Positions 30,654-48,240 of a DNA stretch of 64,000 nt are shown piece by piece. A program made the translations under genes and the position numbers. The DNA comes from a bacterium. GTDB lineage: Bacteria; Vulcanimicrobiota; Xenobia; Xenobiales; Xenobiaceae. The DNA is taken from contig JAUNIO010000007.1 in NCBI GenBank assembly GCA_030535355.1, forward strand, positions 15,742 to 79,741, read 5' to 3'. Positions within the stretch are counted from its first letter, which is position 1. Every line of letters begins with the position of its first letter. The notes below the pieces were generated by a model. The model ran no database searches and had not been told where the DNA came from. It saw nothing but the letters and a program-made list of their open reading frames with translations.

Positions 30654-30821
30654 GTTTTACTTTTTGTCGAAAAGTAAAATTTAAATGAAATAAAAGTAAA
30701 AATACTCTGCAAAAAGTAAAATGAAATATCTAAAAGTAAAATGAATCCTTACACTTTTGTTTAATAAGGCTTTTGTCAGATAATAGTTATTGTTTAAGGA
30801 ATTTGAGCAAAAGTAAAAATG
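30654..30821 (+). promoter_or_regulatory. array of AAAAGTAAAA(T) repeats upstream of and overlapping the start of the AlbA_2 gene
   Basis: Direct copies start near 30670, 30692, 30712 and 30732, about 20-21 nt apart. Another overlaps the ATG at about 30809, and an inverted copy lies at 30654-30665. Confidence 0.5.
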
Positions 30822-32309
30822 ACTTGTGAAGAATTGCTGGAAATATTAGCGCAAATACAAAACTCAAGATGCGAAACGCAAAATCTGGAGATTAAAGCTG
30901 CGGCCCAGGGCTGTCCCACGCGTTTGTATGATACGCTCTCAAGTTTTTCTAATCAGGATGAGGGCGGAATCATTGTGTTTGGCGTTGATGAAAAAGATAA
31001 TTTCCGCGAATGCGGCGTTTACAATCCGCAAGATTTGCAAAAGAAGATCGCTGAGCAATGTCTGCAGATGGAGCCGAGAGTCAGGCCTTTGCTGACTATC
31101 GCTGAAAAAGATGGGCGTTTTTTTGCCGCAGCTGAAATACCTGGCTTAGATGCAGCTGATCGTCCCTGCTATTATCAAGGACGAGGCCGTCTTAAAGGCG
31201 CTTATGTGCGCGTCGGCGACAGTGACGAGCCTATGACTGAATATGAAGTATACGCTTATGAAGCCTTTAAAAGAAATTACCAAGATGATATTCGTCCAGT
31301 TGAGCGAGCTTTGCGTTCGGCTTTGGACCAGGAACTGCTGCGAAGCTACCTGCGCCGTTTACAGGACAGCAAACCCAATTTAAGCTCGCTCGGCGATGCG
31401 GAAATATGCGAGCTTCTAAGCTATACCAAAAACGGAACGCCGACCCTGAGCGCAGTTCTGTTGTTTGGCAAATATCCGCAGGCGTTTTTTCCTCAGCTTT
31501 GTATTACCGCCGTCGTTGTTCCGGGAACACAGCTGGGCGATACGGGAGAACAGGGAGAACGGTTTATAGATAATCGCCGGATCGAAGGCAGCGTTTCTGC
31601 TATGCTGGATCAGACTATGGCTTTTTTGAGCAAAAACATGCGTACCAAGATAATTATTGACGCCATGACCGGCAAGAGAGAAGATCGGCCCGAATATCCT
31701 CTGATTGCTTTACGTGAGATGCTTCTCAACGCCTTGGTGCACAGAGACTACAGCACGCATACCGAAGGGACGCCTATCCGGGTTATTATGTACAGAGATC
31801 GTTTGGAAGTCTGCAGTCCCGGCGGCATTTATGGACGTCTTCAGGTAAAACAGCTGGGGCTGGTGCATCCCAGCACAAGAAATCCCGTGCTGGCCACAGC
31901 TTTCGAAGTGATGGGGCTGACCGAAAACCGTTATTCGGGAATCCCGGCTATGCGCCGGGCGATGGCGGATTTCGGGCTGCCCGAGCCAGTATTCACCGAC
32001 GAACGGGGCAATTTTACGGCCACGTTATACAACGGCCTAACTGCTGAATATACCGCCAGCCCTGAGCTTTCAGAACCAGAGCGAAAATTGCTGTTATTTT
32101 TGCAAACGCCGCGCAGCAGAAAAGAGATCGCGGAACATTTAGGTCTAAGTTCGGTGGCTTATGCGCTGAAAGAATATGCCGGGCCATTATTAGACCAGGG
32201 TCTGATTACCATGACCATGCGCGACAAGCCCAGGAGCCATAAGCAAATGTTTGTGCTGAGCGATTCCGGGAAGAAGCTAGTTAGGGATTTTTTACAAAAC
32301 CGATATTAG
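30819..32309 (+). CDS. AlbA_2 (Schlafen-like) + HATPase_c_4 + C-terminal wHTH protein (RecG-like putative transcriptional regulator)
   Basis: The N-terminal ETQNLEIKAA...GGIIVFGV fits AlbA_2. The central LREMLLNALVHRDYS fits HATPase_c_4. The C-terminal RKEIAEHLGLS looks like an HTH. Confidence 0.7.
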   Translation: MTCEELLEILAQIQNSRCETQNLEIKAAAQGCPTRLYDTLSSFSNQDEGGIIVFGVDEKDNFRECGVYNPQDLQKKIAEQCLQMEPRVRPLLTIAEKDGRFFAAAEIPGLDAADRPCYYQGRGRLKGAYVRVGDSDEPMTEYEVYAYEAFKRNYQDDIRPVERALRSALDQELLRSYLRRLQDSKPNLSSLGDAEICELLSYTKNGTPTLSAVLLFGKYPQAFFPQLCITAVVVPGTQLGDTGEQGERFIDNRRIEGSVSAMLDQTMAFLSKNMRTKIIIDAMTGKREDRPEYPLIALREMLLNALVHRDYSTHTEGTPIRVIMYRDRLEVCSPGGIYGRLQVKQLGLVHPSTRNPVLATAFEVMGLTENRYSGIPAMRRAMADFGLPEPVFTDERGNFTATLYNGLTAEYTASPELSEPERKLLLFLQTPRSRKEIAEHLGLSSVAYALKEYAGPLLDQGLITMTMRDKPRSHKQMFVLSDSGKKLVRDFLQNRY

Positions 32310-33330
32310 CGGGCAAACCGAGCGGCCCTTCACCCAGCAGTTTGCGCAGCAGCTTCCAGGTGTGCCCGTGCTGCATATGCCCGCGGTAACTGGCGACGAC
32401 CTGCCTTATATCAGTAGCTTCCATGGTCCCCGCGGCATAAGCATTCCGCATATAGCGCAGTTTCTTCTTACAGCGCTTTTTCGTGCTCTGCCGCACCTTC
32501 CTAATGATTTTTCCGGACTCAGCCAGATAGAAATGAAAGCCCAGGTAATCGATGCCATTTCGCAACGGAGCGATCTTGGTCTTAGCGTTGAACTCCAACC
32601 CTAGCTTATCCGCCAGCGCGCGCATCTCCCGCAGGCAATAGCGCAGATAGGATTTATCGCGATGGATCAGCACCATATCATCCATGTAACGGGAAAAATA
32701 CGCGATCTGCAGGCGCTCCTTGATCAGCCGATCCATTTCATCCAGATAATACAGAGCGAACCACTGGCTAGTCTGATTGCCCAGGGGCAGCCCCTTGCCC
32801 GGGACAGTCTCGTAACTGTCGATGATTACGTGCAATAGCTGCACAAGCCCAGCTTCCTGGAATATTTGGGAAAGCTTGGCTTTAAGCTTTTCGTGATCGA
32901 TATTGTCGAAGAATTTGCGGATGTCGCACTTGAGAAAATAGCCGTCAGGGCCCTGATGCTTATAGTAATCTGCTAGGAAATGCGTAACCCTATGGATGGC
33001 GAACAGGGTTCCCTTGCCTATGCGGCAGGCGGCATTGTCATAGACAAGCCGCTTATCCAGCTCGGGCGCTATTATTTCGTCGCAGAGGCAGTGCTGCACC
33101 ACCCTGTCGCGGTAATGCAGGGCGCTGATGATGCGGGGCTTGGGATCGAAGACGGGAAACTGATAATATCCCGACAGCCTGTAAGAGCCATTGCGCAGGG
33201 CATCCGCTAAGGTCACGAGATGCCAGGAAAGGTTCATTTCGAACTCAATGATCTCTTTTAGGTCGCGTTTGCCCAGCCGGGCCTTTTTATGCGCCTTGTA
33301 TAGATTGGCAAAGGCGCAAAGTTTATCCAT
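32281..33330 (-). CDS. DGR reverse transcriptase
   Basis: LPLGNQTSQWFALYY matches the DGR-specific (I/L)GxxxSQ motif, and YMDDMVLI is the catalytic YxDD box. VFDPKPRIISALHYRDRVVQHCL is also present. From memory, the protein is colinear with Bordetella phage BPP-1 Brt. Confidence 0.92.
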   Translation of the reverse strand: MDKLCAFANLYKAHKKARLGKRDLKEIIEFEMNLSWHLVTLADALRNGSYRLSGYYQFPVFDPKPRIISALHYRDRVVQHCLCDEIIAPELDKRLVYDNAACRIGKGTLFAIHRVTHFLADYYKHQGPDGYFLKCDIRKFFDNIDHEKLKAKLSQIFQEAGLVQLLHVIIDSYETVPGKGLPLGNQTSQWFALYYLDEMDRLIKERLQIAYFSRYMDDMVLIHRDKSYLRYCLREMRALADKLGLEFNAKTKIAPLRNGIDYLGFHFYLAESGKIIRKVRQSTKKRCKKKLRYMRNAYAAGTMEATDIRQVVASYRGHMQHGHTWKLLRKLLGEGPLGLPANIGFVKNP

Positions 33331-33689
33331 TATCAGCTGCCTGCCTTTCCGCTAAGCTCCATAATTGAATAAGTCCCCTATAATCAACGATATTACCTTA
33401 AACCTTTTTACAATTGCCTCATACAGCGTCACGCCGATCGCCTCTCCACTCCGCTCCTTCAAGCAAAGATATGATATTGCCCGCTTAGGCAATGGCCAGC
33501 TTAGAAAATGTAGAGAGGGGCGGCAGGGGAAATATCCCGAAAGCCCGCAAGCGCAATATGCGCGTGAAAGCTCCTGCCGCCATGTGTTTTCATGGCAGAA
33601 ACCAGCGTCCTGCTCATGAGGGAAGGCAGTTCCTTTGTTCTCCGCGCACCGGTCAGCTGCACCTGCAGACTAACATCACACCAGCGGAG

Positions 33690-33818
33690 CAATGCGGGAC
33701 GAACACAGCCAGAATCATTATTAACGTTGTTGCCATTAGTATTGATGTCGCCATCGTTATTTACGTTCGCGGCGTTATTACTATTATTGCCGGGGGAGCG
33801 GAGCCACCACCAACAAGC
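33690..33818 (-). repeat. DGR template repeat (TR)
   Basis: Matches the VR at 34419-34546. Read on the minus strand it encodes ACWWWLRSPGNNSNNAANVNNDGDINTNGNNVNNDSGCVRPA, with 13 AAY Asn codons. It lies between avd and the RT gene. Confidence 0.9.
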
Positions 33819-33853
33819 TCGCCCATACAACTGCCTCCCCATTCAAACCCGCT

Positions 33854-34258
33854 TTACGCAGGCTTAAATCTCTTTCTGTCAGAACTTATCCAAGCTCCGG
33901 TCAGGCGTTCCACATCTGTGGTCAGCCTAGAAATCATCTCAAACTGCTTCATGGTGAGCGCTTTCGACTCCATCGCCAGCTGAGAGACATAAGCCAAAAT
34001 TTTAGCCTCCGAGATGGACTTATGCTGAAATTCCAAGCGTATTCCCCAGCTGGCCAAGTTTTCCCGCGTGACAAACGTATCGTTAGCGCGATAAAGATTC
34101 TCCAATATATCCAGCGCCAGGTTCTGAAGCCTGCTCACAAAGGTAAACCTAAACTGCTTGGGAGATTTGGCCGTAGCGTTGATCACATAGCGGCACAAAT
34201 CCTTAGCTTTGGTGATAACCGTCAGTTCTGATTGATATTCTTTAGCCATATTAATCAA
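33854..34258 (-). CDS. avd: Avd-like four-helix-bundle accessory variability determinant
   Basis: 134-aa helical protein with the basic C-terminus GAWISSDRKRFKP. It lies between the target gene and the TR, as in canonical DGRs. Confidence 0.8.
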   Translation of the reverse strand: MINMAKEYQSELTVITKAKDLCRYVINATAKSPKQFRFTFVSRLQNLALDILENLYRANDTFVTRENLASWGIRLEFQHKSISEAKILAYVSQLAMESKALTMKQFEMISRLTTDVERLTGAWISSDRKRFKPA

Positions 34259-34418
34259 CTTGTTCCGCGCGGCATACCGCCGCGCGGGATGGACACCTAG
34301 ATCAGCCGAAATCTTTAGCTCTAATACGCCATTTAACAGACAAGCTTCTGCTTACGCCCATCTTGAACACAAAAAGTAAAAAAATTAAAAAAGATTAAAA
34401 GAATTAAAATTTTAGATA

Positions 34419-34546
34419 CAAAGCGGGACGAACACAGCCAGAATCATCATAAACGCAGCTGCCATTAGTATGGATGTCGCCATCGCAATCTAAGGACGCG
34501 GCGAGATACTACTATAGCCGGGGGAGCGGAGCCACCACCAACAAGC
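34419..34546 (-). repeat. DGR variable repeat (VR) at the 3' end of the target gene
   Basis: Compared with the TR it has 16 substitutions at TR adenines, one G-to-T change and a 1-nt deletion at an A. The last ~25 nt (GATTCTGGCTGTGTTCGTCCCGC) are identical, like an IMH (initiation of mutagenic homing) element. Confidence 0.9.
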
Positions 34547-35413
34547 GCCGTTATCCTTGTAATTTGCTATTCTCGCCTTACCTGAAGCAAACAGCGAACC
34601 CGCTTCATCAACGGACAGCAGGAAAAGCGTATCCTCACAGCCAACATCGCTAAGCTTCGTTTTCAGGATCCTGGTCCGATCTTTAGCGGAGAAATGCTTC
34701 TTTAAGAATTCACCGTTCAAGTATTGCCGCAAGCTACACCTGGCCCAGCTGTTGGTGCTCTGATCCGTATGAAACGCCCGTTGATCGACGCAATCCTTGG
34801 TGATGAGCAACGCGTTATCGCCAGATTTTCTCAGGACCAGCCAATCGAAGTCCCCGAAATGCACAATGCTGCCGACTTGAGCGCTTTTCATCACGGTCCG
34901 ATAGGCTTGTTCCTCTTTCGCTTCCTTCTCCTTCTCGACATCTTTCCTGCGCCGCTCTTCCTCAGCGCTGGCTCGGCTCTTTAATTCTGCCTCAAATTCC
35001 TGAAGCTCCAACTCGCTCAGCTTATTCTTGGTAGCCGCTAAAAGCACGCAATTCTCGAGGACGATACCCTTATCCTTAAGACTGATATTCTTCTCAGCTA
35101 TAGATAGGGCGAGGACGGGCCGGGGAAACTCCCCCAGCTCCAGCCCCACATATTTTACATTGCCCACCTGGTAGGGCGCGGTAAAGCGATGACCTATAAG
35201 ATACACGATCAGCTTTTCCCGCCTCTCTTCGGCAGCGCTTTCGAGTATGTCGTAAAGGTCTTCCTGGGACAAAGCAATAGAATCTATCTTCTTGAGGATT
35301 TCCGCATTATCCGTAATCCGGCGCAAACGCCCGAGTTTATTATCCTTTTCCGCAGCCAGAGGGTCGCTAATTTCCATTACGCTCTTAGATACATTGTTTT
35401 CCATTCTCGACAT
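34490..35413 (-). CDS. DGR target protein, C-type-lectin/FGE-like (WWLRSPG-type) variable domain; apparently truncated by a frameshift in the VR
   Basis: The C-terminus ...NGACWWWLRSPGYSSISPRP* overlaps the VR. The N-terminus has no signal peptide. A Lys/Glu-rich coiled-coil stretch lies mid-protein. Confidence 0.85.
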   Translation of the reverse strand: MSRMENNVSKSVMEISDPLAAEKDNKLGRLRRITDNAEILKKIDSIALSQEDLYDILESAAEERREKLIVYLIGHRFTAPYQVGNVKYVGLELGEFPRPVLALSIAEKNISLKDKGIVLENCVLLAATKNKLSELELQEFEAELKSRASAEEERRRKDVEKEKEAKEEQAYRTVMKSAQVGSIVHFGDFDWLVLRKSGDNALLITKDCVDQRAFHTDQSTNSWARCSLRQYLNGEFLKKHFSAKDRTRILKTKLSDVGCEDTLFLLSVDEAGSLFASGKARIANYKDNGACWWWLRSPGYSSISPRP

Positions 35414-35472: not shown

Positions 35473-35670
35473 TCAGCGCGGATCGCTGACCGTATCCACA
35501 TAGCCTTCACTCATCTTCCCTAAAATAAACTGAGCCTGCTCTACAGTCATATCCGGCGCTCTGTTGGGCGAATTCTCGGCCTGAGTATCTTCCGCGTCGC
35601 CGGGCCGCACGGCAGATAAGGTCCTAGCCACATCGGCGCTGGCAGCTCCTGAGCGAGGCGTGGCACGCAA
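35473..35670 (-). CDS. small hypothetical protein
   Basis: 65-aa ORF on the same strand, between the operon and the DGR target. No motifs. Confidence 0.3.
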   Translation of the reverse strand: MRATPRSGAASADVARTLSAVRPGDAEDTQAENSPNRAPDMTVEQAQFILGKMSEGYVDTVSDPR

Positions 35671-35753
35671 GCCTGCGGCCCAGGCCGCGTGCGCTTTAAG
35701 AGGAAGGGCAGGGGCGCGTCCGGCTTTTTTCTCCGGTTAATCTCCGGTTTAGA

Positions 35754-36455
35754 CTACGGTTTAGACTCCGCAGACGGCTGCTTCTCTGGACGCTGAGGCG
35801 CGGTACTCGGAGACTCCGGCGGCGGAGCAATCGCTTTGGCCACAGAAGAGGGCTGGCGCGGCACCATCACCTTCGCAGCGGAAGAGGACTGACGCAGCGC
35901 AGGCGTTAGCCCCTTATCCAAGCTGCCGTATATTTTCAACCCCAGCCACCCCTTAGCGTTCAGGGACGTAACGGTCACGAGGGCATCGTTCTTGACGTCC
36001 TTGAGGCGCAGTCCCGGCCCAAACGGCTGCTCCTGCAGATCCAGAAAAGTCTGGAAATCCTCCTGTTTCCAAGGAATATCCTCATACTGGTTTCGCGAGG
36101 CCGCACTAGCCTGCCAAAGCTCATCCAGAATTCCCGTCATTTCAATAACTAGCGCAGGATCGCTGCTATCAGAGAGCAGACAGACACTCCTCCCCTCCAA
36201 AGAGGGCAGCTGCCCGCTCTTCCCCTGGTACGTATGCCCCTGCGGAAACTCCTGACTGTTTAAGCTCATGGCGTTTTTCCACTGCTGCAGATAGCCTTCC
36301 ATCTGTCCTGGGGCCTGGCTGGGGTCCTGACATTCCACCCCGTCTAAGCGCTTCAGATCAAATACCGTCGGATCTTCCCGCACTATATACGCCCAAACTT
36401 TATGATCGGAGAGGGCAAACAAATACCTGACAACCGTCACCTTCCGCGCACTCAT
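35754..36455 (-). CDS. hypothetical protein with a Pro/Ser-rich tail
   Basis: 233-aa ORF. Its start overlaps the upstream gene's stop by 4 nt (ATGA), suggesting translational coupling. Confidence 0.6.
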   Translation of the reverse strand: MSARKVTVVRYLFALSDHKVWAYIVREDPTVFDLKRLDGVECQDPSQAPGQMEGYLQQWKNAMSLNSQEFPQGHTYQGKSGQLPSLEGRSVCLLSDSSDPALVIEMTGILDELWQASAASRNQYEDIPWKQEDFQTFLDLQEQPFGPGLRLKDVKNDALVTVTSLNAKGWLGLKIYGSLDKGLTPALRQSSSAAKVMVPRQPSSVAKAIAPPPESPSTAPQRPEKQPSAESKP

Positions 36456-36940
36456 AGCAGATCATCGTCCTCCATCATTCTGCAGTTTTGCATCTCCCTG
36501 CGCCCAGCGGCAAACTCCCCCGCCAAGCTCTGCCACTGGCGGTTATGTTCGCGCTTCCAGTCGCCGCACCGCCGCTTCACCTGCTCTCTATGCTCCCGGC
36601 CTTCCCGCTCCAGCCTGCCGATCCGGGCCGCGGCCACCCGCATAGCTAAGGATTCCGCTCCGTCCACAGCCGCCGGGACTTCCCCTTTAGGCAGGCGCAA
36701 GGACTGCGACTCCAGCTTTTGCCGGGGTGACAGGCTCTGCTGGGCCTCCACACTGTTTTTATAACGCTTCAGCCCGTCGTTCAAGCGTTCGAAGCTCGCT
36801 TTATGTTCTTCTCCAGCTTTAGAGTGCAATTTTGCAGCAGCCTCGGCCTCCACTTGTTCGGTCACGGTTTTCTTTATTTTGGCACCCGACGAAGCTATCT
36901 CCCAGCTCTTCTTGTCCATTTCCTCCCAGCTCATCTGCAT
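36452..36940 (-). CDS. hypothetical helical, charged protein
   Basis: 162-aa ORF, coupled by a 4-nt overlap to the downstream gene. Confidence 0.55.
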   Translation of the reverse strand: MQMSWEEMDKKSWEIASSGAKIKKTVTEQVEAEAAAKLHSKAGEEHKASFERLNDGLKRYKNSVEAQQSLSPRQKLESQSLRLPKGEVPAAVDGAESLAMRVAAARIGRLEREGREHREQVKRRCGDWKREHNRQWQSLAGEFAAGRREMQNCRMMEDDDLL

Positions 36941-37044
36941 TTCCCCTGTCAGTTTTTCCGTAAATTTCTACGCCAACTTCCACGATCGAGGTCTATTATC
37001 AAGTGCTCACGTCAGCTTCTCCTATCAGCTTATCCTGTAAGCGG

Positions 37045-37959
37045 CTAGAGGCGCTCCGCCGCGCCCTGCTCGCGCTGCTCTGCCAAAGCTCCCTCGCGCA
37101 GCATCTTTTTATCCTCGGGAGCCATGCCGTAAGCATCGAAGATCATGGGGTCATCGCGCAGCAGCTTCTCGCGCTGCTCCTGCAGCTCCCCACGGTACAT
37201 CTTAGCCACAGCCTGGTGCGACTTATCCAAACTGGCCGCCCGCCAGTCGCGCAGAAGCTCCCGCAGCTGCACGGGATCGCGATCGGGGCAGTGCTTCTGC
37301 AGGGCCGCCAGCAGAGCATCTCTAAGACGCAGCATATCGTTCTCCGGCAGCAGGCCCTGCAGGTACTGCTTGATTTCCACCCTGCTGTAGCCGGACTGTT
37401 TAAAGGCTTCAATGACCGCCAGCTGCTCCTCCGGCTCCATGCGGCACAGCGCGGCCTGCTCCATAAAGGTATCCGGCAGCACGATCCCCTCGCGCTCACC
37501 GATCTCCTCTTTCAGAACGGTCACCCCCACAGCCTGGTAATTCACCTTTTCGGGCAGGTCCATCGCCTCAGTCTCCACTATCGGCAGTTTCTCTTTCAGG
37601 TAACCGTAGTAATCGGCAAAGGAGGGAAAATCTTTCCTTTCCATCCAGTCGGTCTTTTTGACGGCCTCGGCCACGCGGTAGCCGATCTCCTCCGCCACTT
37701 CTTGCTTAACGGTAATGCCCAGGGACTTCGCCAAGAAGGTGACCGTTTCCGAAACAAACTTCTCGGCCACCAGACCTAAAATCTGCCCAACGACAGGTCC
37801 CAGCGGCCCGCCCACCATGACGGCGGACAGCGCTCCTGTCAAAATGGAAGCCCCAGCGGATATGGCTCTTCCCACGCCGCTGAAAATGGCCTTACCGACG
37901 CTGCAGATACTGCTGACGCAGCTGCCGACAAGGCTGCATAAACCACTCAAGAAACCCAT
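37045..37959 (-). CDS. glycine-zipper membrane protein with a helical cytoplasmic domain
   Basis: The N-terminal ~70 aa (MGFLSGLCSLVGSCVSSICSVGKAIFSGVGRAISAGASILTGALSAVMVGGPLGPVVGQILGLV) carry repeated small-xxx-small motifs. Confidence 0.6.
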   Translation of the reverse strand: MGFLSGLCSLVGSCVSSICSVGKAIFSGVGRAISAGASILTGALSAVMVGGPLGPVVGQILGLVAEKFVSETVTFLAKSLGITVKQEVAEEIGYRVAEAVKKTDWMERKDFPSFADYYGYLKEKLPIVETEAMDLPEKVNYQAVGVTVLKEEIGEREGIVLPDTFMEQAALCRMEPEEQLAVIEAFKQSGYSRVEIKQYLQGLLPENDMLRLRDALLAALQKHCPDRDPVQLRELLRDWRAASLDKSHQAVAKMYRGELQEQREKLLRDDPMIFDAYGMAPEDKKMLREGALAEQREQGAAERL

Positions 37960-38167
37960 AATGTTACCTCCTCTGCTCCCTTACTTTAGAAATGTCATTT
38001 ATTAACAATGTCATTTTGTTAATACTTCGCGAACAAGTTATCGTTTACACCAGCTTCCGCGCCAGCGCAGCTTTGCTCAGCTCAGAAAGTCCTTGAGCAG
38101 GATTGTGACTCGCTGTATTTGCTGCCCAGCCAGCGTCAGAATACTTAATTGAACCAGCCAGGTTTGC

Positions 38168-41100
38168 TCATTGAGTTCCTGCCCGCCAGGCCTGAGCTTC
38201 TAAATTGAAAAGCAAATCAAGCCTGGTCTTCTCGTCGAGTTCCAGCTCGCCCAGCCAATAGCGAAGCATCGTTTCCAGAGCCTCTGCTTTGCTGGCGCAG
38301 GTACGGCCATAGATATTCCCATAAATATAGTGCACCAGCAGGGCAAAATCCGCACCTTCCAGCTTAAGTTCCGAACGGACAAAGCCCAAATGTTCCTTAA
38401 ACGCTCCTTCCGGATTGTCGGCAGGTTTTTCGGAGTCTGTGATCACAGCCTGGCGATAGAGCTGCAGCAAACGCCTGTCCCGCATTAGCTGCAAGTATTT
38501 GCGCACTCTTTTCGGGGTAATTTCACCCGGGGAGAAATGCTCCAGTCCCGGCAGCACGCCCAGCTTACAGTTTTGGGGCTGAGCGTAATAAACTTCGGCC
38601 ACCTCCCGCACCTGCTCATCATCGGCCTCGAGCAGCTCTCCCGCATCGTTGTCGATCTTGACCTGCACGGCCTTGGGCCAGTCCTGGGTCAGCACGATGG
38701 CGTAGCCGGCGCGCAGATTGGAAAGGAAAGCTTTTTGGTCATCCTCCAAAGCCATAGTATTGCCGATAGCTTCCTTGTCGTCCTGAGCGAAGAGCCTGTG
38801 CACGATTTTGGTATTGGTGTTTTTCAGAACCTCCGGCGTCATCTTATCCGGGATTTGATCTACGATAATCAGAGACTCTCCGTATTTGCGCACCTCCGCC
38901 AGCATATTGGCGAAGACCTCGACGCCCTGGCGCTTGCTGGGGCTGTCGCCGGGCACAAAGCGGCTGAACAGGCGGTGGGCTTCCTCCACCAGGGTAATGT
39001 GCTGAAAGCGCCGGCCCTCTTTGCGTCTTGCGTAGTATTCCAGCTTCACGGCCTGAAGCAGATTGGTCATGATAAAGCCCATAATCATGGATTTTTCCGC
39101 GCCATTGCGGATCTCTTCCAGTTCAATAACCACCTGGCGGTGAATCAAATCGCGGAAATTCACCGAGCGCGGCGTGTTCAGCATCAGGCCCTTAGCTCCC
39201 ACCATCAGGCTGTTGATACGGGCGCGCAGAGAACCCAGGTACTCGGCTTGCAGGCGCTCGCCGAACTCCTGTTCTATGGTGACCTCCTCCACAGCCTTTT
39301 TGAAATCCGTTAGGGTAGGGAAAGCGTAGCTGCCCGGGGCGAAGGGGTCCTCCTTCTTCCCATTCACGAACCACTCGTCCGTGCTGACATTCCAGCCCTT
39401 ATACTCGTAAGCGCGATAGACGCCAGCCTCCAAAATTTGGGGAATAGCCGCTTCCATCTCAAAGGCCGCTTCCATGGTGGCCTTGATCATATCCGCCCGG
39501 GCCGACACCGGCTCGCCCGGAAACAGCTCAAAGGGATTGAGGTAAAAGGGCGCGGTATCCTGTTGGCCAGGCGTGAAATAGGTCAGCTGAGGGAAACGGG
39601 GCTGGCCTTGGTCATCTTTCTGGCCGTAGAGCGTGCGATACTCTGTCTTGACAGGTTCGATGACCAGAAAAGGTACGCCGCATTCGCGCAGGATTTTCTG
39701 ACAGGTCGTGGTCTTGCCGCTGCCCGTAACCCCGGCCACAAAAGTGTGCTTGTCGAGAACCCTTCTATCCAAGGCGATCGGCACCTGGCGGCGCACCGTG
39801 CCGCACTGCACCAGATGGCCCAGCTCCAAGCGATCTTCCTGCGGCTGCGGCACGTTCAGGCCGAATTCCACCTCCCGGCGCAGGCCCAGGCCGATAACAT
39901 CTCTTTGGGGCAGGCCCGTCAGAATTCCCAGCTCCTCGGCTGAAAGCCAGCTGCCGCAAAAGACCTTCTGATTCCCAGAAGTTTTCTGAGAGAGCGCCGC
40001 CATACCCAGGCGAACCAATTCCCCCTCCCGGCGCTTAGCATGAGGTATCTGCAGATTCTGCAGCGCTTCATAGCAGCGTTTGTGCTTGGGAGAGTCTCGC
40101 TCGATCTCGGCGAAGGATAAAGCCGAACGGTTGCCTTGCTGGCTGCTGTAGAGCGACATCGCCGTATTGGCCAGCCGGTACATGACCGGACGGTCGTCGC
40201 TGAAGAGAAATGCGCAGGTCAGGAAAAGCCCTTTGCCCCGCCCCCGATCCAGGCGAGGCAGCAGCACATCGTCCAGATATTTGCTCCAGCCCGAAGCTTC
40301 GCGGTTGTCACTGCGCAGCTGCACGGTTAAATTAACGCTGCGGCTGGAGCTGGAAGTGTCCGAACGCGTTTTGTGGTGCGCATAGGTGGTGCTGAAGCTG
40401 TCATCCCGGCTGCTGCCCGTCTGGGAGCCGCTGCTGCTGGATTGGCTGCTGCCATCCGTAGTGCTGTAAGAGTCGCTGTACTGGCGCTGCTCACTGCTGC
40501 TGGTAGAATAATTTTTCCGTCCATCATGCCCAGCGCTGTAATTTTCGGAATCACTCTCCGATTGGGTGTTCGAGCTACCGCCAGAAGACTTGTTATTCGA
40601 TGTGCTCTTCGACGAAGTCGAGGAATTGTGCTGGCCATATTCCTCGCTCGTATTGCTGCCCGCTGACGCCTGGACCTGGTTGGTGCGCGTATGGCGCACC
40701 TCCTCATCAGTGCGGTTGCTGCTCTCGCTCTCGTGCTGCGATTCCGTTTGGTGCACGCCGTGCGAGGACTGCCGGGCATGGCTGATGCTGCCGCTCGCAC
40801 TGTTGCTGTCTGAGCTGCCCTCTGTGAATTGCCGCGTCAGATTGGCCAGCGGGGCCAGCAAGTCGAAAACCCGCAGCAGGTCGGCCTCGAGAGCATCCAT
40901 TTCCGCTTCGGTATAGGGCTGGGCCAGCACCACAAAGCCAAAGCTGCTGCCCCCCATCACGTCGATCAGGCGGTCCACGCCCTGGAAATCTCCCTGAGCC
41001 TGATCGGGATCGGCCCCGGGCACTCCGGTCAGCACGCCGAAATATTTAGCACTGCGCATACGCTCCAGCACCTCAGCCTTCTCCGCCGCCCGGTTTTGCG

Positions 41101-41563
41101 AGCCCAGCTCGGTCACCTGGCTGCCCCGAAAATTGCCCTCTATGCTCGGCTTAAGGAGCTTGCTGACTAAATCGTACTCGTTGAGCTTGAATTCGGAGGG
41201 GTTATTTTCGGTGAGATCGCGGCCCACCCCGAAGTAAAAATCCACTTTGCCCTGGCCGTCGCCGAGGATTATGTAGATAAAATTCATGGCCTCGCAGCGC
41301 CGGAAGGCGCCCAGGATATTCTCCAGGGCCTCGCGGCGCGGGGCCTTTTCCTCGAACATGATCTCATCTATATGGCAGAGAAAAAACTGATCCGCGGCCA
41401 GACTGCGGGGCAACGGCAGCCATTCCGTTTCCCCCGCCAGCAGGGAACGGTGAGCGGGAGCGCGCAAATATTTGAGCAATTCCCGGGACTTCTCATTCTC
41501 AAGATCGGCCTTCTCCAGGTCCTGACCATCGGCTCCGCGCTGTTCAGCTCTCATCTCGTCCAT
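38168..41563 (-). CDS. HerA/FtsK-superfamily P-loop ATPase with an N-terminal unknown domain and a Ser-rich disordered insert
   Basis: Walker A is VAGVTGSGKTTT and the DEAH-like Walker B is ITLVEEAHRLF. A SLIIVDQIPDK motif is also present. Residues ~245-415 are low-complexity Ser/Thr/Asn/Gln. Confidence 0.8.
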   Translation of the reverse strand: MDEMRAEQRGADGQDLEKADLENEKSRELLKYLRAPAHRSLLAGETEWLPLPRSLAADQFFLCHIDEIMFEEKAPRREALENILGAFRRCEAMNFIYIILGDGQGKVDFYFGVGRDLTENNPSEFKLNEYDLVSKLLKPSIEGNFRGSQVTELGSQNRAAEKAEVLERMRSAKYFGVLTGVPGADPDQAQGDFQGVDRLIDVMGGSSFGFVVLAQPYTEAEMDALEADLLRVFDLLAPLANLTRQFTEGSSDSNSASGSISHARQSSHGVHQTESQHESESSNRTDEEVRHTRTNQVQASAGSNTSEEYGQHNSSTSSKSTSNNKSSGGSSNTQSESDSENYSAGHDGRKNYSTSSSEQRQYSDSYSTTDGSSQSSSSGSQTGSSRDDSFSTTYAHHKTRSDTSSSSRSVNLTVQLRSDNREASGWSKYLDDVLLPRLDRGRGKGLFLTCAFLFSDDRPVMYRLANTAMSLYSSQQGNRSALSFAEIERDSPKHKRCYEALQNLQIPHAKRREGELVRLGMAALSQKTSGNQKVFCGSWLSAEELGILTGLPQRDVIGLGLRREVEFGLNVPQPQEDRLELGHLVQCGTVRRQVPIALDRRVLDKHTFVAGVTGSGKTTTCQKILRECGVPFLVIEPVKTEYRTLYGQKDDQGQPRFPQLTYFTPGQQDTAPFYLNPFELFPGEPVSARADMIKATMEAAFEMEAAIPQILEAGVYRAYEYKGWNVSTDEWFVNGKKEDPFAPGSYAFPTLTDFKKAVEEVTIEQEFGERLQAEYLGSLRARINSLMVGAKGLMLNTPRSVNFRDLIHRQVVIELEEIRNGAEKSMIMGFIMTNLLQAVKLEYYARRKEGRRFQHITLVEEAHRLFSRFVPGDSPSKRQGVEVFANMLAEVRKYGESLIIVDQIPDKMTPEVLKNTNTKIVHRLFAQDDKEAIGNTMALEDDQKAFLSNLRAGYAIVLTQDWPKAVQVKIDNDAGELLEADDEQVREVAEVYYAQPQNCKLGVLPGLEHFSPGEITPKRVRKYLQLMRDRRLLQLYRQAVITDSEKPADNPEGAFKEHLGFVRSELKLEGADFALLVHYIYGNIYGRTCASKAEALETMLRYWLGELELDEKTRLDLLFNLEAQAWRAGTQ

Positions 41564-41642
41564 CTAGCCCTCCTGCTCTTATCCTTCTCCGCTTATCCTT
41601 AGCTCAACCTCAGCTTAACCTTGCTTACCCCACTGGGAACGC

Positions 41643-44600
41643 TCACTTCAGCTCCTGGCGGTGGGTTTTGCGCTGCACTTCGGGCTTAGCAAAATCTTCC
41701 GGCCGGCCCACGGCATACTCGATAGTGTTCGGATCTACTTTTCTGATATAGATGGCTGTGTCTGGGGAATCGCTAACCTCATCGTCATCCAAAGAGCAGA
41801 ACAGGCAAGAGACCGCTCTTTTCGGCAGCACACCCGGCTTCGCCGCCCGCGGCTCCGAGGTATAATAGAGGTAGAAACAGTTCTCATTGGCATAATCGTA
41901 TTTATTCCACACTCCATAACCGCCATTGGGAGGGATAACGGTATTAAATTTATCCTCGTCGTCGAGGTTGCCGAGATACCAAATAAAGGGAGCTTCTCCG
42001 TCCGCGCGGTTCTCATCGTCGATGCGCACGTCTTTGCCGCTGCGACGGCAGCGCAGCAAACCGAAGGCCACCCCGGTCTTACCGGTGCACGTGCGGTCCA
42101 GCTCAATGGCCAGGCGCTCTGCCTCAGCGGCAAGCGCGGCCTCCGTTTCCTTCTTAGCCTGGTCCGCTCCCGGCTGCTGATCGGAAGCGGCCTCCTCCTG
42201 CATACCCAGAGGCAAATGCAGGGCGAACATCACTTTGGTATTGGCCTCTTGACCGCGTTCTTCCAGGAGACGCTGCTGCCCGTTTTTCTCTATGGCCTCG
42301 ATCTTGCGCTGAAATAGCTTCTTAACCACCGGGCTTTTGCAGGAATTGCCCGCCAGCAAAATATGGATTGGCAGCTGTTTCAGACGGTCTGGGTAATTCT
42401 TTGGGCCAAATACCTGAAACAGCATATCGAAAAAGTTATCCACCCCGACTTCAATGCGGCGTTCGACGAGCTTTTCCAAGGCGTCGACTTTGATCACCAG
42501 CTTGACGGAGACGGGACCCTGCTGCTCTCCACCCAAACTGTACAGATTAATACTCGTATTTCCTTTGCTGAACTTGTTTTGATACCCCTCATGTTTTTCC
42601 CAGATGGGACGCATAAGCTCGGCCAGCGCCCGCCGGTTCATATAGGCCTCCTGCGGTGCCTGATCGGTTTTGTACACCAGCCGCTCCGCGCCCGCGAAAG
42701 GCTCCGCATCCGGCGGCAGCACAAAAGGAATAAACATAGAGCGCATCACCTGCAGGTTATCCTTATAGACCTCATAAGCCATGAGGTTCAGTAAATTTTC
42801 CCCGCCTAAGTTAACATCGCCGCTGGCCCCAAACTGATGCAGGATAAATTTGCCAAAGCGCCTATCCTCGGGTTTCTCCTCGACACCGAAATCGAAATCG
42901 GTCGTGCCCCCGCCGAAATCGAAGATCGCATAGGAGACGCGCTGCCCGCTCTCCTTGGGCTGCAGTCCCAACTCTTTCAAAGCGCAGGCGGCATAAGCGG
43001 CAGGCTCGCTGACGAGCGAATCGACGAAAAAGTATTTCATGACTTTATCATCGCTAAGAATGGAGGGCGGCAAAGATTTTCTCAGGCCGCGCTCAAAGCT
43101 GGCCTTCAGGCGCCCACACACATCTTTGCCGTAATTGACGGGAAACGACAAATTATAGCGCAGAAAAATGCCGTGCATCATGTTGTTGATGTACAGGCCC
43201 AAATAATAGGCGTAAACCTCGATAGGGTCGAAATCACCATTCTCGAGTTCCAGATAAGGCTTCAGCTCCAAGTCGCGCCCTTGGCCGTCCTCTAAAAGCA
43301 GGCGGCGTTTCCTATCGTTGGCCCACTGCTTCAGCTCGCTGAATATCGAGTATCCGCCTATGTCTTTCAGATCATTATAGGCTTGATGGGAAACCGTCAG
43401 TTGCTCCCATTCGGTCAAAGGACGCCCCTCGCGGGCCTCGTAGGCGCGGCGGAAGCCCTGCAGATCGCGCAGTTCGATCACCGTGGGGTTTTCAAAATCC
43501 TCCAGCACGGGCGCGGCAGCGTAATTGCCCTTGCCCACGCGCAGCAGACGCTCGTCCGTGCCGCGCGCACAGGCTACCACCGTGCTCTTGGTGCCAAAGT
43601 CAATGGCAACCTCGCCATTTTGGATTATATCATTTTGGGGAGGGCGCGCGAAAACCGGCTGCTCCAGCTGAATAGCGGAGTACCCCGCCTCATCGCGCTG
43701 CTTTAACCCTTCAAAGAGTTCCCAATGTCCCTTGTTGCGGTCGGTCAGCTGATCTTCAGAGTATGGAGTCAGATCGGCCCTGCGCTTATCGGAGTTAAGG
43801 TAATAATCGAAGATGAGCTTAACGTCGCTGCCCGAGAGGACGGCGTCGGTATTAGCCTGATAATCGTACCTGACGCCATAGACCGAACGCTTGATCCTGC
43901 CCGCCCGGAAATTCGCTAAAAGAGCGCCTATTTTCAGAGAAATGCCGCCTTTAGCCTCTTCTAGGTAAGGCAAAAATACTTTTAAATCCTCAGCATACGG
44001 CGTTTCCAGCATACGCCGGAACGCGTCTTCCTGCTCGGCGCTCAAGCCCTCGGGTATGAGTTTCCAGCACAAAAGCTCCCAAATGGTTTCGGGATAGCTC
44101 AAGGGCAGGGCATTGTTCCCCCGCAGCCGGCAGACAGCCATAAGAGGAAACTGCACGCTCTGGCCCACGGCCGCTAATCTCCCCGCCTCTTGGGCGTTGC
44201 CGTTATTGAAGCTTAAAAGCCGCCCGCTCTCTGTTTTTAAGTCGTTTTTCAAACCTCCAAAAGAGCCGCTAAAGAGATAGCTTTTATAGGTGCTTCCCGC
44301 TATTTGCAAATATCCGGCTTCATTTAAATAAGGATTGCCATTGCCCTGGCAAAACGTCCGCATTCCCTCCTGAGCGGTCACCGGCTCAAACCGCAGCCCG
44401 CCGCAGGCCAGTTCAGTATAAGCGCCCACCTCCGCAGCGTAATGGCCGCAGCCCAGCCGTAAGCTTACTCCCGCCTTCTCCCATTGAGGATAGAGGCCCG
44501 CCACCTGGCGGTCCAGCCACAGCGGATCGCTTTTCATCTTTATAAAGCGCCTGTCGCAGGGTTCGCGCAGCAGGTTTAACAGCTCGGTGAACTCGCGCCC

Positions 44601-44708
44601 CAGCTGGCCCAAACCGTCATCAGCCTTTTTAATTATGCTGCTTTCTATTTTCGTTTTGGGCAGTTTTACGCTTTTCACGGGAATGGGAGTAACTGTACAC
44701 AAATCCAT
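41643..44708 (-). CDS. Hsp70/actin-fold ATPase-like protein with large N- and C-terminal extensions and no canonical substrate-binding domain
   Basis: Hsp70 nucleotide-binding motifs are present: AIDFGTKSTVVA (phosphate-1), SEPAAYAA, IFDFGGGTTDFDFG (phosphate-2) and ILLAGNSCKSPVV (adenosine). Confidence 0.8.
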   Translation of the reverse strand: MDLCTVTPIPVKSVKLPKTKIESSIIKKADDGLGQLGREFTELLNLLREPCDRRFIKMKSDPLWLDRQVAGLYPQWEKAGVSLRLGCGHYAAEVGAYTELACGGLRFEPVTAQEGMRTFCQGNGNPYLNEAGYLQIAGSTYKSYLFSGSFGGLKNDLKTESGRLLSFNNGNAQEAGRLAAVGQSVQFPLMAVCRLRGNNALPLSYPETIWELLCWKLIPEGLSAEQEDAFRRMLETPYAEDLKVFLPYLEEAKGGISLKIGALLANFRAGRIKRSVYGVRYDYQANTDAVLSGSDVKLIFDYYLNSDKRRADLTPYSEDQLTDRNKGHWELFEGLKQRDEAGYSAIQLEQPVFARPPQNDIIQNGEVAIDFGTKSTVVACARGTDERLLRVGKGNYAAAPVLEDFENPTVIELRDLQGFRRAYEAREGRPLTEWEQLTVSHQAYNDLKDIGGYSIFSELKQWANDRKRRLLLEDGQGRDLELKPYLELENGDFDPIEVYAYYLGLYINNMMHGIFLRYNLSFPVNYGKDVCGRLKASFERGLRKSLPPSILSDDKVMKYFFVDSLVSEPAAYAACALKELGLQPKESGQRVSYAIFDFGGGTTDFDFGVEEKPEDRRFGKFILHQFGASGDVNLGGENLLNLMAYEVYKDNLQVMRSMFIPFVLPPDAEPFAGAERLVYKTDQAPQEAYMNRRALAELMRPIWEKHEGYQNKFSKGNTSINLYSLGGEQQGPVSVKLVIKVDALEKLVERRIEVGVDNFFDMLFQVFGPKNYPDRLKQLPIHILLAGNSCKSPVVKKLFQRKIEAIEKNGQQRLLEERGQEANTKVMFALHLPLGMQEEAASDQQPGADQAKKETEAALAAEAERLAIELDRTCTGKTGVAFGLLRCRRSGKDVRIDDENRADGEAPFIWYLGNLDDEDKFNTVIPPNGGYGVWNKYDYANENCFYLYYTSEPRAAKPGVLPKRAVSCLFCSLDDDEVSDSPDTAIYIRKVDPNTIEYAVGRPEDFAKPEVQRKTHRQELK

Positions 44709-44830
44709 ATCTCTATACCTCCGGCCTCCAGCAGCCTGCTGCAGCTAGGGCAGCCAGGCAGAAGCGGCCTCTGAACTAACAAATATGACCAACGATTATT
44801 ACCAACAAATATTAAACTTCTGTCCTGTCC

Positions 44831-46111
44831 TCACTCCACATGAACGATGCTCTTCCTGATCATCTTAACACGGCCGCCTATGCGCTCCAGATACAGATTG
44901 CGGTAGCCCGGCAGCAGGACCCGCGTAACCCGGCCCTGAGCGCGGCTGGAACGATCCGGCGTGTGGCGGTCCATATCGTAGGGCTGTCCGGCCGCCTCAT
45001 CGGCCTGCGCATAAACCTCTTCCGATTTAGAGGCATTCACCAGCTGCATAGCATAGCTGAACAGTTCGCGCAGATATTGCAGGTCAGCAGCGGCCCCCTC
45101 GCGCAGGCACAGTTCCATCTCGTCCCAAATGCTCTCCAAACCATCATCCTGGGCCCCGCCGCAGATAAAAGACATAAAGCTGGGCTGACGGCAGAGGCAC
45201 TCCAGACGCTGGCGGCTCGCCGGGCGCAGATTTTCCCAGCGCTGATAGAGGTCCCAGCCCTCGGGAAAGCGCTGCTGCAGCTGATTATCCAGCTCTTCAT
45301 TGACATCTTCCAGCTCATTCTTCTGCTGCTGCAGTTCTGTCAGCTTAGCGTTTAATTGGCTGCGGAGCCGCTGTTCGCGCTCGCGGGCTTCGTCAAGGTC
45401 GCGCTGGTACTTAGCGGTAATCTCCCTTACCGCTTCCTCCTTCTCTTCCGCCTTCTGCCGGGCGACATCAGCCAGCCGCCTCACCTCCTCCTGGGCCCTG
45501 CTGACCTCCTGCTGGGCCGAAGTTCGTATCTGGCGAATCTCCCGCTCGGACTCCGCTTTAATCCGGCTGCACTCGCGCTCGGACTCTTCCTTAAGACTGG
45601 CACATTGCTGCTGAGCGCTCGCAAGCTTTTGACTTAACTCCCGGTTAGCATCCGTATGCCCTTTGCACAAGCGCTGCAGCTCTTGGTAATTCTGCTGCAG
45701 CTCTCGATGCTGCTTCTCCAGGCCTGCGTAACTGCTGTTTAGTTCTGCATATTGACTTTCGAGCTGGCCATATTGATTTTTAAGCTCTTTGATTTCTCTA
45801 GACTGCTCTTCACTCGCTGGCGTAGTTGCTAACTGCTCTTGCGTCCCGTACTGCTGATTCTGGCCCAAGAGCAGGCTAGCGTCAGGGCCACCATCTCTGC
45901 CGCTATCCCTTGAGCGCGAGTTTGTCATTGAGTGCGAGTTGACAGCGGTTTTTCTAGTTGAGCTTTCACCTGCGCCTTCAGCGCGGGACTGCACTACCTC
46001 GCGCAGCTTCTGCTGAATCTCGGATTCGTCCAACAAATTTAGCACCAGCTCTAAAAGGCTGGCGCGCGATTTGCTGTTTTTATTATAATTCTCGTTTCTG
46101 GCGAAACACAT
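44831..46111 (-). CDS. long coiled-coil protein with a GrpE-like C-terminal domain
   Basis: Contains ~200 aa of heptad-like Glu/Gln/Arg-rich sequence. The C-terminus GQPYDMDRHTP...GRVTRVLLPGYRNLY...MIRKSIVHV resembles the GrpE pattern G.xFDPxxH...V..V.xKGY....R.IRxxMV.V. Confidence 0.6.
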   Translation of the reverse strand: MCFARNENYNKNSKSRASLLELVLNLLDESEIQQKLREVVQSRAEGAGESSTRKTAVNSHSMTNSRSRDSGRDGGPDASLLLGQNQQYGTQEQLATTPASEEQSREIKELKNQYGQLESQYAELNSSYAGLEKQHRELQQNYQELQRLCKGHTDANRELSQKLASAQQQCASLKEESERECSRIKAESEREIRQIRTSAQQEVSRAQEEVRRLADVARQKAEEKEEAVREITAKYQRDLDEAREREQRLRSQLNAKLTELQQQKNELEDVNEELDNQLQQRFPEGWDLYQRWENLRPASRQRLECLCRQPSFMSFICGGAQDDGLESIWDEMELCLREGAAADLQYLRELFSYAMQLVNASKSEEVYAQADEAAGQPYDMDRHTPDRSSRAQGRVTRVLLPGYRNLYLERIGGRVKMIRKSIVHVE

Positions 46112-46130
46112 TTCTCAGCCTACTTCCAAA

Positions 46131-46196
46131 TTAACAGGGTTTAACAGGGATTATCAAGGGAATATTAGGGATTTGCGGAGGATTATCGAGGGATTC
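46131..46196 (-). promoter_or_regulatory. six phased AATCCCT-like repeats (minus-strand reading) just upstream of the operon start
   Basis: The plus strand reads TTAACAGGGT TTAACAGGGAT TATCAAGGGAA TATTAGGGATT TGCGGAGGAT TATCGAGGGATT, with a period of 10-11 nt. The array lies 20-85 nt upstream of the ATG at 46111. Confidence 0.45.
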
Positions 46197-46418
46197 GTAT
46201 CTGTAAAGCGACATTTTCATGAGCGCGGGGCTTGCAAACACGTCCTTGACGCTCTCTTTGTTCACTTAAGCCAATAGATTCTCCTGCCCAAACGTCTGCG
46301 CTACTGGCAAAAAAAAAAAACATAAGACATACAAATTTGCAGCCGCGCCAAATAGCACTCCTTCAAAGAACAGAATCTCATCCTTACCCAAGACCCTTGC
46401 CTGAAGGCTTAACGGCAT

Positions 46419-47792: not shown

Positions 47793-47937
47793 AATCGTCA
47801 CCTCCGATTCCTTAAGTATTACTGCAATGACGTGCAGCCGGGTAATGCTCTGAGTTAGGCAATGCTAGTCAACTAATCACCAAACATACAATATTAAATG
47901 ATTATTCAATTATTTAACAAGATTATCAATTAATTAA

Positions 47938-48240
47938 TCATCTGATTAAGGACACTAAACTGCAAATAATAATCAAAAACGTGATCTCATAGACCATGCC
48001 CAGGGAAAGCACAGAGGTGCCTCCATAAAAGGCCGAGCACTTGCCCGGCTCCTGCGCATCGCTGATCGCGCTGCCCTTGACTGCAGCAGGCGCACTGACA
48101 GCAGCGGGACTGCAGGAAGCTACCGCCATGATCTCCTGGCTTTCAGGGCACGGGATAAGGCCAGCAGATAAAGCAGTGGCCCAGGAATAAACAGCTGCCA
48201 TGTGGGCGATATTTAGGCTCGGATTCTTCATAATCTCCAC
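47938..48240 (-). pseudogene. short remnant of a lipoprotein-family gene (signal-peptide-like N-terminus only)
   Basis: The N-terminus MKNPSLNIAHMAAVYSWATALSAGLIPC resembles the family's signal peptide and lipobox. The family's conserved upstream region lies at 48300-48660. Confidence 0.35.

Follow-up and report, generated by a model that had tools for sequence, protein, structure and literature searches.

Six genes on the minus strand of a bacterial contig (JAUNIO010000007.1 of assembly GCA_030535355.1) run straight into a diversity-generating retroelement (DGR), which raises the question whether the genes and the DGR are one system or two, and what the six genes could do. We analysed a 64,000-nt stretch of this contig (the window, whose positions are used as coordinates throughout) and named the genes A to F. 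An earlier note on this DNA had taken the first view, with the hypervariable DGR protein as the sensor of the system. Our analysis supports the second, and we hold two points together with high confidence: the architecture of the module, which joins a GrpE-like protein (A), a divergent Hsp70-type ATPase (B), a HerA/FtsK-type ATPase (C), a predicted membrane protein (D) and two further genes (E and F), and its independence of the DGR, which is a chance neighbour. The A–F arrangement is not there by chance, because the identical gene order recurs in dozens of unrelated genomes, and the reverse transcriptase (RT) and Avd genes of the window were found by tblastn in none of 82 related loci, searched with up to 10 kb of flank. 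The module is undescribed, real and widespread, and it is probably conflict-related.

The open reading frame (ORF) list contained seven minus-strand ORFs from 46111 down to 35473 (Table 1), separated by gaps of 122, 79, 208 and 104 nt, a 4-nt overlap between the stop of E and the start of F, and then gaps of 83 and 59 nt. The gene positions, the overlap and the 208-nt maximum gap all agreed with the earlier note, which had counted six or seven genes. Six proved right and seven wrong, since the ORFs of 233 and 65 aa belong to a single gene, F, which two further assemblies of this organism (L088 and L089) carry as an undivided ORF of 327 aa. Over 15 kb, L088 and the window are 99.98% identical, and they differ only at 35756 (T/G), 35741 (A/C) and 35736 (a 1-nt gap); these three differences within 21 nt (35736-35756) produce the stop and the frameshift that split F in the window, and they are either an assembly error or a real polymorphism. 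The orthologues of F in L006 and L086 are also undivided, with 285 aa, and the 65-aa piece bears the conserved C-terminal tail of the family. The region of the break carries a short duplicated motif, gtctaaaccg. A promoter and terminator scan of 32-47 kb gave no more sites than shuffled sequence, so the scan was uninformative on operon boundaries.

Table 1 Coordinates of the module genes and of the DGR in the window
Feature	Coordinates	Strand	Length	Description
Gene A	44831..46111	minus	426 aa	Long N-terminal coiled coil and GrpE-like C-terminal domain
Gene B	41643..44708	minus	1021 aa	Divergent Hsp70-type ATPase
Gene C	38168..41563	minus	1131 aa	HerA/FtsK-superfamily P-loop ATPase
Gene D	37045..37959	minus	304 aa	Hydrophobic N-terminus and cytoplasmic helical domain
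Gene E	36452..36940	minus	162 aa	Small, charged, poorly conserved; helical by eye
Gene F	35473..36455	minus	327 aa intact	Two ORFs in the window
Gene F, first ORF	36455-35754	minus	233 aa	
Gene F, second ORF	35670-35473	minus	65 aa	
DGR cassette	32281..35413	minus		Separate element, directly after the module
DGR target	35413-34490	minus		
DGR variable repeat (VR)	~34546-34419	minus		
DGR Avd	34258-33854	minus		
DGR template repeat (TR)	~33818-33690	minus		
DGR RT	33330-32281	minus		

Relatives of B are numerous and scattered. A collection clustered at 90% contained at least 499 of them. When grouped at 50% identity the family formed 1098 clusters, of which 709 were matched at E <= 1e-30, and a relative was present in at least 447 of the 185,579 representative species, mostly Firmicutes but spread over many families; the carriers included Selenomonadales, Veillonella, Megasphaera, Phascolarctobacterium, Lachnospiraceae, Ruminococcus, Peribacillus, Ureibacillus, Paenibacillus, Natroniella and one metagenome-assembled genome (MAG) of Cloacimonadota. 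In 24 of 77 genome loci and in metagenomic loci, which we call type I, B was followed by C, with D and the small genes next wherever the contig continued, and the order A-B-C-D, usually with E and/or F, was constant across Firmicutes. Thus the search of genomes for co-occurrence showed that the genes are conserved together, in the same order in loci from genomes and from metagenomes. L086, the closest other lineage, had the full module, and its B was 52% identical to that of the window. A second B paralogue was common among the loci, and some MAGs had two loci with B homologues. Among 72,556 plasmid records, two carried a B homologue and one of these also had C. A plasmid of the proteobacterium Acinetobacter piscicola (L083) had the components in a different order: C at 37% identity, two paralogues of B and a weakly D-like gene, along with a HEPN protein; an integrase and HipA toxins lay next to them. 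No relative of B occurred in 50,697 phage records, and 2.9 million viral contigs (IMG/VR) yielded only stretches of 60-90 residues at the phosphate-2 motif, which are not members of the B family; a phage origin of B was rejected on these grounds.

The sequence routes to the identity of B were weak, and comparison of folds was therefore required. Pfam gave no match at E <= 0.1, with PF00012 (HSP70) included, and the HscA and DnaK models of NCBIfam matched residues ~562-651 only (E 0.003-0.02), far below their cut-offs (16 bits vs 708 for HscA and 13.6 vs 648 for DnaK). Nothing significant was found in the PDB with B as a single sequence, and a B profile found DnaK at E 0.002, on the phosphate-2 motif only. 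The AlphaFold2 model of B, built from 60 homologues, had a pLDDT of 82.7, and its top Foldseek matches were DnaK, BiP and Ssb at E 2e-19, with TM-scores of 0.60-0.64 when normalised to targets consisting of the nucleotide-binding domain (NBD) only. The motif cores DFGTKS, FDFGGGT-D and LAGNS and the residues SEP-AYA were invariant across the 60 homologues, which means that the phosphate-1, phosphate-2 and adenosine motifs of Hsp70 and its catalytic Glu are all conserved; the phosphate-2 motif aligns to DLGGGTFD of DnaK. Judged by motifs and modelled fold, B is a highly divergent Hsp70-type ATPase with an intact catalytic centre, and its family is a distinct Hsp70 branch that lacks annotation. 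Because the nucleotide-binding motifs are invariant, B should retain ATP hydrolysis.

The domain layout of B sets it apart from canonical DnaK, relative to which the N-terminal ~340 residues and the large inserts in the NBD (~340-890) are additions. The earlier note had called B an Hsp70-fold ATPase without a substrate-binding domain. The fold was right, but the missing domain holds at the level of sequence and is less clear in the model, which has a nine-strand beta domain (894-1019) in the place where the substrate-binding domain would be, with no sequence similarity to it and no helical lid. Foldseek alignments of the whole model covered ~690 columns with full-length DnaK vs 560 with the longest NBD-only target, which is about 130 extra.

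The gene next to B gave the second half of a possible chaperone pair. Full-length A matched only coiled-coil-type models in Pfam and NCBIfam, and its PADLOC matches were likewise coiled-coil noise. The last ~130 aa of A are conserved upstream of B in most loci that have a complete upstream gene, with the oral Selenomonas/Centipeda loci as the main exception, and the motif found there, G-D-x-F-D-x-x-x-H ... G-x-I-x-x-V-L-L-x-G-Y ... I-[KR]-K-S-x-V-x-V, resembles the C-terminus of GrpE. An hhalign comparison of 36 A homologues with a GrpE alignment gave a probability of 86% and E 5e-6 over 159 columns, corresponding to GrpE 27-191, a span that takes in the helix, the bundle and the beta domain. 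The GrpE alignment used for this held five sequences, including Geobacillus and human GrpE drawn from PDB alignments; a homologue search with E. coli GrpE had returned solely enterobacterial proteins of 88-99% identity. The AlphaFold2 model of the last 200 aa of A (pLDDT 84) had a matching topology, with a long helix, a bundle of helices and a beta sheet. More direct routes to this assignment gave weak results: Thermus GrpE ranked 3-4 in the Foldseek search with the model, but at a non-significant E of 0.3; the Pfam GrpE model (PF01025) was matched by two of 26 A homologues, at E 0.1 and below threshold, and not by the A protein of the window; hhalign with the single A sequence reached E 0.005, though with a low probability; and no GrpE was returned when the PDB was searched with an A profile. 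The GrpE-like C-terminus, which had first been called by eye, is thus backed by profile-profile comparison below the Pfam threshold, and the role of A as a GrpE-type nucleotide-exchange factor dedicated to B, as sequence and model suggest, is supported but not proven.

For C and D, the assignments made in the earlier note were borne out. C has a conserved N-terminal domain (~60-240), a serine-rich low-complexity insert (~245-420) and the ATPase domain (~600-980). It passed the Pfam cut-off for DUF87 (25.7 bits, cut-off 23.2), and it matched mad8 (7e-21) and HerA (2e-18) in PADLOC, in the generic ATPase domain only; a literature search on the MADS system, made to interpret the mad8 match, yielded nothing of relevance. 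The best NCBIfam match was CedD (4e-25), in the C-terminal ATPase part only, and the PDB matches were HerA/DUF87 chains, with 8yho as the best (2.9e-10) and 4d2i at 4.3e-8. Models of TrwB, FtsK and VirB4 were hit below threshold (E 0.017-0.03). The Walker A (GVTGSGKTT) and Walker B (LVEEAH) motifs lie within blocks of 52-87% conservation, and the insert, with 55 Ser in 176 residues, was found in every homologue. These matches make C an ATPase of the HerA/FtsK type, its Walker motifs are intact, and a profile search found no PDB relative of its N-terminal domain.

The hydropathy scan detected hydrophobic segments in D alone among the module proteins, and D is accordingly the only component predicted to be membrane-associated. 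Its residues 1-66 are hydrophobic and rich in Gly, Ser and Ala, with a GxxxGxxxGxxxG zipper, and include GGPLGPVVGQILG, which agrees with the glycine-zipper membrane protein named before. The helical cytoplasmic domain of D is well conserved in 23 aligned orthologues, with motifs such as EEIGYR..EA..H.DWK, and tblastn placed D after C in type I loci, with a weak match on the Acinetobacter plasmid. D fell into no family of Pfam, NCBIfam or PADLOC. No family match was obtained for E in Pfam, PADLOC or NCBIfam; in the type I loci of Negativicutes its position is occupied by a gene of 95-199 aa. Twenty aligned homologues of F have the same layout, in which a linker rich in Pro, Lys and Ser joins a conserved N-terminal domain to a conserved tail of ~25 aa, and F matched nothing in the PDB by profile search and nothing in Pfam or NCBIfam. 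E and F evolve fast, and tblastn detected them in the closest relative only. We also considered F as a fragment of B and rejected this, as the two have no similarity.

The combination of genes matched no named system, as the earlier note had claimed. Only the generic HerA ATPase domain of C was recognised when PADLOC was run, which returned nothing for B, D, E or F; no model of Pfam, NCBIfam or PADLOC describes the module, and we found no paper on this gene combination in a full-text search of the literature. Compared with DnaK-GrpE, B has the Hsp70 nucleotide-binding fold with all ATP-binding motifs and, in its model, a beta-rich domain where a substrate-binding domain would be, and the adjoining gene has GrpE-like sequence and topology. 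However, B fails the curated models (the DnaK match of NCBIfam spans ~80 residues) and has the ~340 extra N-terminal residues, the large NBD inserts and no helical lid, the coiled coil of A is much longer, and the module has no J-domain partner, adds a HerA ATPase and a membrane protein, and is a sparse accessory rather than universal. Similarly, C resembles the ATPases of the anti-phage systems Sir2-HerA and DUF4297-HerA and of archaeal HerA-NurA, in that it matches HerA models (2e-18) and structures including Sir2-HerA 8xau and is encoded beside non-ATPase partners. But Pfam and PADLOC found no Sir2, DUF4297, NurA or other mad genes among the module proteins, C has double the length, a novel N-terminal domain and the serine-rich insert, and it is encoded with an Hsp70/GrpE pair and a membrane protein instead.

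Two further published groups of systems were compared with the module. The GAP1-N2 DO-GTPase systems of Firmicutes and Actinobacteria are predicted conflict systems with Hsp70, GrpE and sometimes a second Hsp70 that lacks the peptide-binding domain, and some of the systems described by Kaur et al. (2020) are DGR-linked, with MoxR-vWA or DO-GTPase-GAP1 cores (PMC7159879). Like them, the module encodes an Hsp70-type and a GrpE-like protein together; unlike it, they are defined by a DO-GTPase and GAP1, have FNIII/DnaJ parts and lack a HerA ATPase. Family scans, which included no GAP1 profile, found no MoxR, vWA or GTPase matches in A-F, and identity with the GAP1-N2/DO-GTPase systems was rejected because the defining components were not detected. 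Type III-A CoCoNuT systems have the Hsp70-like NBD and substrate-binding-domain protein CnuD, in some variants an EccE3-HerA/VirB4-like ATPase with a variable insertion, and in some a small helical protein or a glycine-zipper protein, and CoCoNuT is defined by the McrB-type GTPase CnuB and the DUF2357 protein CnuC, usually with a HEPN domain (PMC11090510). The common elements are an Hsp70-like protein and a HerA-like ATPase with an insert, where C is likened to EccE3-HerA by description only. In contrast, the ATP-binding motifs of CnuD are degenerate and those of B intact, and Pfam and PADLOC detected no McrB-type GTPase or DUF2357 in the module or the scanned window flanks and no HEPN domain in the module; CoCoNuT identity was rejected for want of McrB and DUF2357. 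Residues 540-957 of C aligned to positions 695-1128 of the NCBIfam model NF033849 (ser_rich_anae_1, ~1160 aa; E 1.2e-16), which suggests, by sequence, that C and the NF033849 proteins have the same layout. With 59 bits against a cut-off of 650, C is a distant relative of that family, which has no assigned function, and not a member. The module therefore has single elements in common with Hsp70, HerA, CoCoNuT and GAP1-N2 systems and belongs to none of them.

The surroundings of the loci were compared next to the genes themselves. Among 16 type I loci, none of the 120 locus pairs had at least three flank families in common, and the GC content of the module (0.562) differed from that of the DGR (0.50) and of the window (0.52). 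Because its distribution is patchy, its flanks are not conserved and its GC content deviates, the module is an accessory, horizontally mobile and self-contained unit. The flanks repeatedly contain WYL regulators and NERD/UvrD helicases; the helicase of L086 matches the full-length PADLOC model RTasNERD-Hel (7e-58), and other flank matches are LeoBC-like dynamin, JetC/JetD and AbiEii. In the window, the neighbours of the module are the DGR and an AlbA_2/Schlafen-type gene. Directly after F, L018 (18374-22896) and also L019 have an 887-aa dynamin-family GTPase (Dynamin_N 1.5e-14, LeoBC 3.7e-11) and a 621-aa protein, and on the Acinetobacter plasmid a dynamin-family fragment follows the HEPN gene.

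Several loci depart from the common arrangement. In L001 (6094-21363) and L086 (92-18534), an extra B paralogue of ~967 aa lies between A and B, and both modules lie between a WYL regulator and a NERD/UvrD helicase; this form may be an extended version of the system. The oral Selenomonas/Centipeda loci (L027-L045) have a shorter B of 885-906 aa, which matches from about residue 220 and is preceded by three conserved genes (~290, 235 and 233 aa), and the nearest upstream protein is not GrpE-like. This is a different operon type around the same ATPase. In Ureibacillus xyleni (L052, 3424-12853), a canonical Hsp70-vWA fusion (HSP70 3e-102, VWA 9e-21) lies upstream of the A-B pair, with a 1084-aa, distantly B-like protein (22% identity, E 5e-5) in between. 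On a plasmid of Helicobacter sp. NHP19-012 (L084, 5115-13810), a 628-aa B homologue is found among an HNH endonuclease, an SMI1/KNR4 immunity-type protein and an FtsK/SpoIIIE protein; oddly fragmented Hsp70-containing operons have been noted in Helicobacter (PMC11090510).

What, then, could the module do? The accessory and mobile features and the conflict-type neighbours lead us to favour a conflict system in which the Hsp70/GrpE pair and the HerA-type ATPase would act on the membrane protein D and control it, a reading that we put forward tentatively and by analogy. Such an accessory system would be directed against phage or mobile elements. C, if hexameric like HerA, would be tethered at the membrane through the cytoplasmic domain of D, and B, cycled by A, might spend ATP on binding and remodelling flexible segments; candidate clients of this kind are the serine-rich stretch inserted in C and, in F, the linker and the conserved tail. 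A trigger would then change the state of D, whose glycine-zipper helices could perturb the membrane, with E and F as possible adaptors or regulators. In a bolder form, which is speculative and which we doubt, the module would represent a new class of immune or abortive-infection system, in which an Hsp70-GrpE cycle is the transducer, in place of a nuclease, a cyclic-nucleotide signal or a STAND NTPase, and remodels a HerA-type ring to free or activate a glycine-zipper effector.

A number of observations weigh against a conflict system. Most other complete loci (type II) consist of the A-B pair alone without C or D, and since so many B homologues come with A only, B may function without C or D. 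Pfam and PADLOC recognised no nuclease, NADase or other classical effector domain in the module, and the one feature that would make D an effector is its glycine-zipper anchor. No DnaJ match was found in any module protein at E<=0.1 in Pfam, although a J-domain partner could be encoded elsewhere in the genome. Loci L003 and L005 lie among ordinary housekeeping genes, with Lpt genes, def and FAD synthase in some loci, and the counts of defence neighbours are raw numbers. The missing effector domain and the housekeeping surroundings would suit the main rival, a specialised chaperone-plus-translocase of the cell that works on a membrane or envelope structure by assembling, repairing or remodelling it, with the Hsp70/GrpE pair handling the client and the HerA-type ring giving mechanical work at the membrane via D. 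Hsp70/GrpE pairs classically remodel proteins, the dynamin-family GTPases after F in L018 and L019 are of a membrane-remodelling type, and a canonical Hsp70-vWA fusion stands upstream in L052, all of which fit a cellular machine. We nevertheless regard it as rather improbable, as the patchy spread over many families, the unconserved flanks, the plasmid copy adjoining an integrase, HipA and a HEPN protein, the fast evolution of E and F, and the recurrent WYL and NERD-helicase neighbours all speak against it.

A third possibility is a DNA or protein translocation device of a mobile element, as in conjugation, the archaeal Ced system or type VII secretion, with C as the pump and D as its membrane partner. 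The best NCBIfam match of C, CedD, and its weak matches to TrwB, FtsK and VirB4 point this way, as do the B homologue on the Helicobacter plasmid with its HNH endonuclease, SMI1/KNR4 and FtsK/SpoIIIE neighbours and the two plasmid records with B, one of them also with C. However, family scans of the window turned up no relaxase, coupling protein or pilin inside the module or beside it, and no WXG100 substrate or polytopic channel protein either, and because relaxases, substrates and channel proteins were not found we consider such a device unlikely. D bears just a short N-terminal glycine-zipper anchor, most copies are chromosomal, the flank family tables contain no mobile-element genes, and the plasmid, phage and viral records searched for B, as given above, are nearly or entirely empty of it.

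Under any of these readings, the Hsp70 family, which is among the best-studied protein machines, includes an unannotated branch that has a GrpE-like partner of its own and is in fixed association with a membrane protein and an ATPase of the HerA type. As a defence system, the module would make a chaperone cycle a new signalling principle in bacterial immunity and would add a new class of partners to HerA-scaffolded systems; should the immune-class form be true, it would be the first Hsp70 cycle to act as a bacterial defence switch, with a new deep Hsp70 branch of ~1100 clusters. As a cellular machine, it would be an unrecognised membrane-associated chaperone/translocase of Firmicutes. The carriers of B include genera of the human mouth and gut (Selenomonas, Veillonella, Megasphaera, Phascolarctobacterium) and soil Bacillales, and cultured carriers such as Veillonella infantium, Neobacillus dielmonensis and Evansella tamaricis make the module directly testable.

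There remains the attractive idea that the module is a component of a DGR system, which has to be corrected. The DGR is a genuine, complete and self-sufficient target-Avd-TR-RT cassette, with Pfam matches for the target (DUF6273, 1.9e-16), Avd (bAvd, 8e-8) and RT (RVT_1, 6e-21), and with a TR/VR pair of 129 nt in which all substitutions save one (G-to-T) are at TR adenines. Compared with the TR, the VR lacks one nucleotide at an adenine run; this 1-nt deletion shifts the frame, so that the target ends within the VR, at 34490, and is short of ~24 codons, among them those of the conserved CVRPAL end; its variable C-terminus is thus truncated, and the same truncated 307-aa target is present in the independent assembly L088. 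The target is cytoplasmic, because it has neither a signal peptide nor a transmembrane segment. The module is not conserved together with DGRs in the 82 related loci, an outcome that the earlier note itself had named as refuting its proposal, and the gene table of L086/L087 contains no DGR, RT or Avd. That a DGR-diversified DUF6273 protein is the sensor, the two ATPases its transducers and D the effector of a single unit of module and DGR is therefore very unlikely: the 59-nt same-strand spacing between the end of F and the target start codon, where the terminator scan found no recognisable terminator, the cytoplasmic target and the published coupling of DGR targets to NTPase conflict systems (PMC7159879) would favour it, but RT and Avd are missing from the related loci, the flanks are unshared, the GC contents differ (0.562 vs 0.50), the cassette is complete on its own, the truncation affects the very part that varies, and the published DGR-linked cores (MoxR-vWA, DO-GTPase-GAP1) were not found here. 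From the same spacing, co-transcription of module and DGR is possible in this organism only.

Some minor features were noted around the module. Two genes upstream of the module in L006 (5887-7104), the closest relative among the genomes, a 406-aa protein without a family match is weakly similar (27% over 96 aa) to the non-variable N-terminus of the DGR target. The AlbA_2/Schlafen-type gene of the window (30819-32309, plus strand) encodes a 496-aa protein with AlbA_2/Schlafen, HATPase_c_4 and Fic-like_C matches and is convergent with the DGR RT, the 3' ends overlapping by 29 nt. Upstream of A (46801-48240, minus strand), where the GC content is ~0.48, lie three small ORFs without a family match. 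Those of 124 aa and 100 aa have lipoprotein-like N-termini, and the third, of 209 aa, contains a Ser/Gln/Asn-rich stretch.

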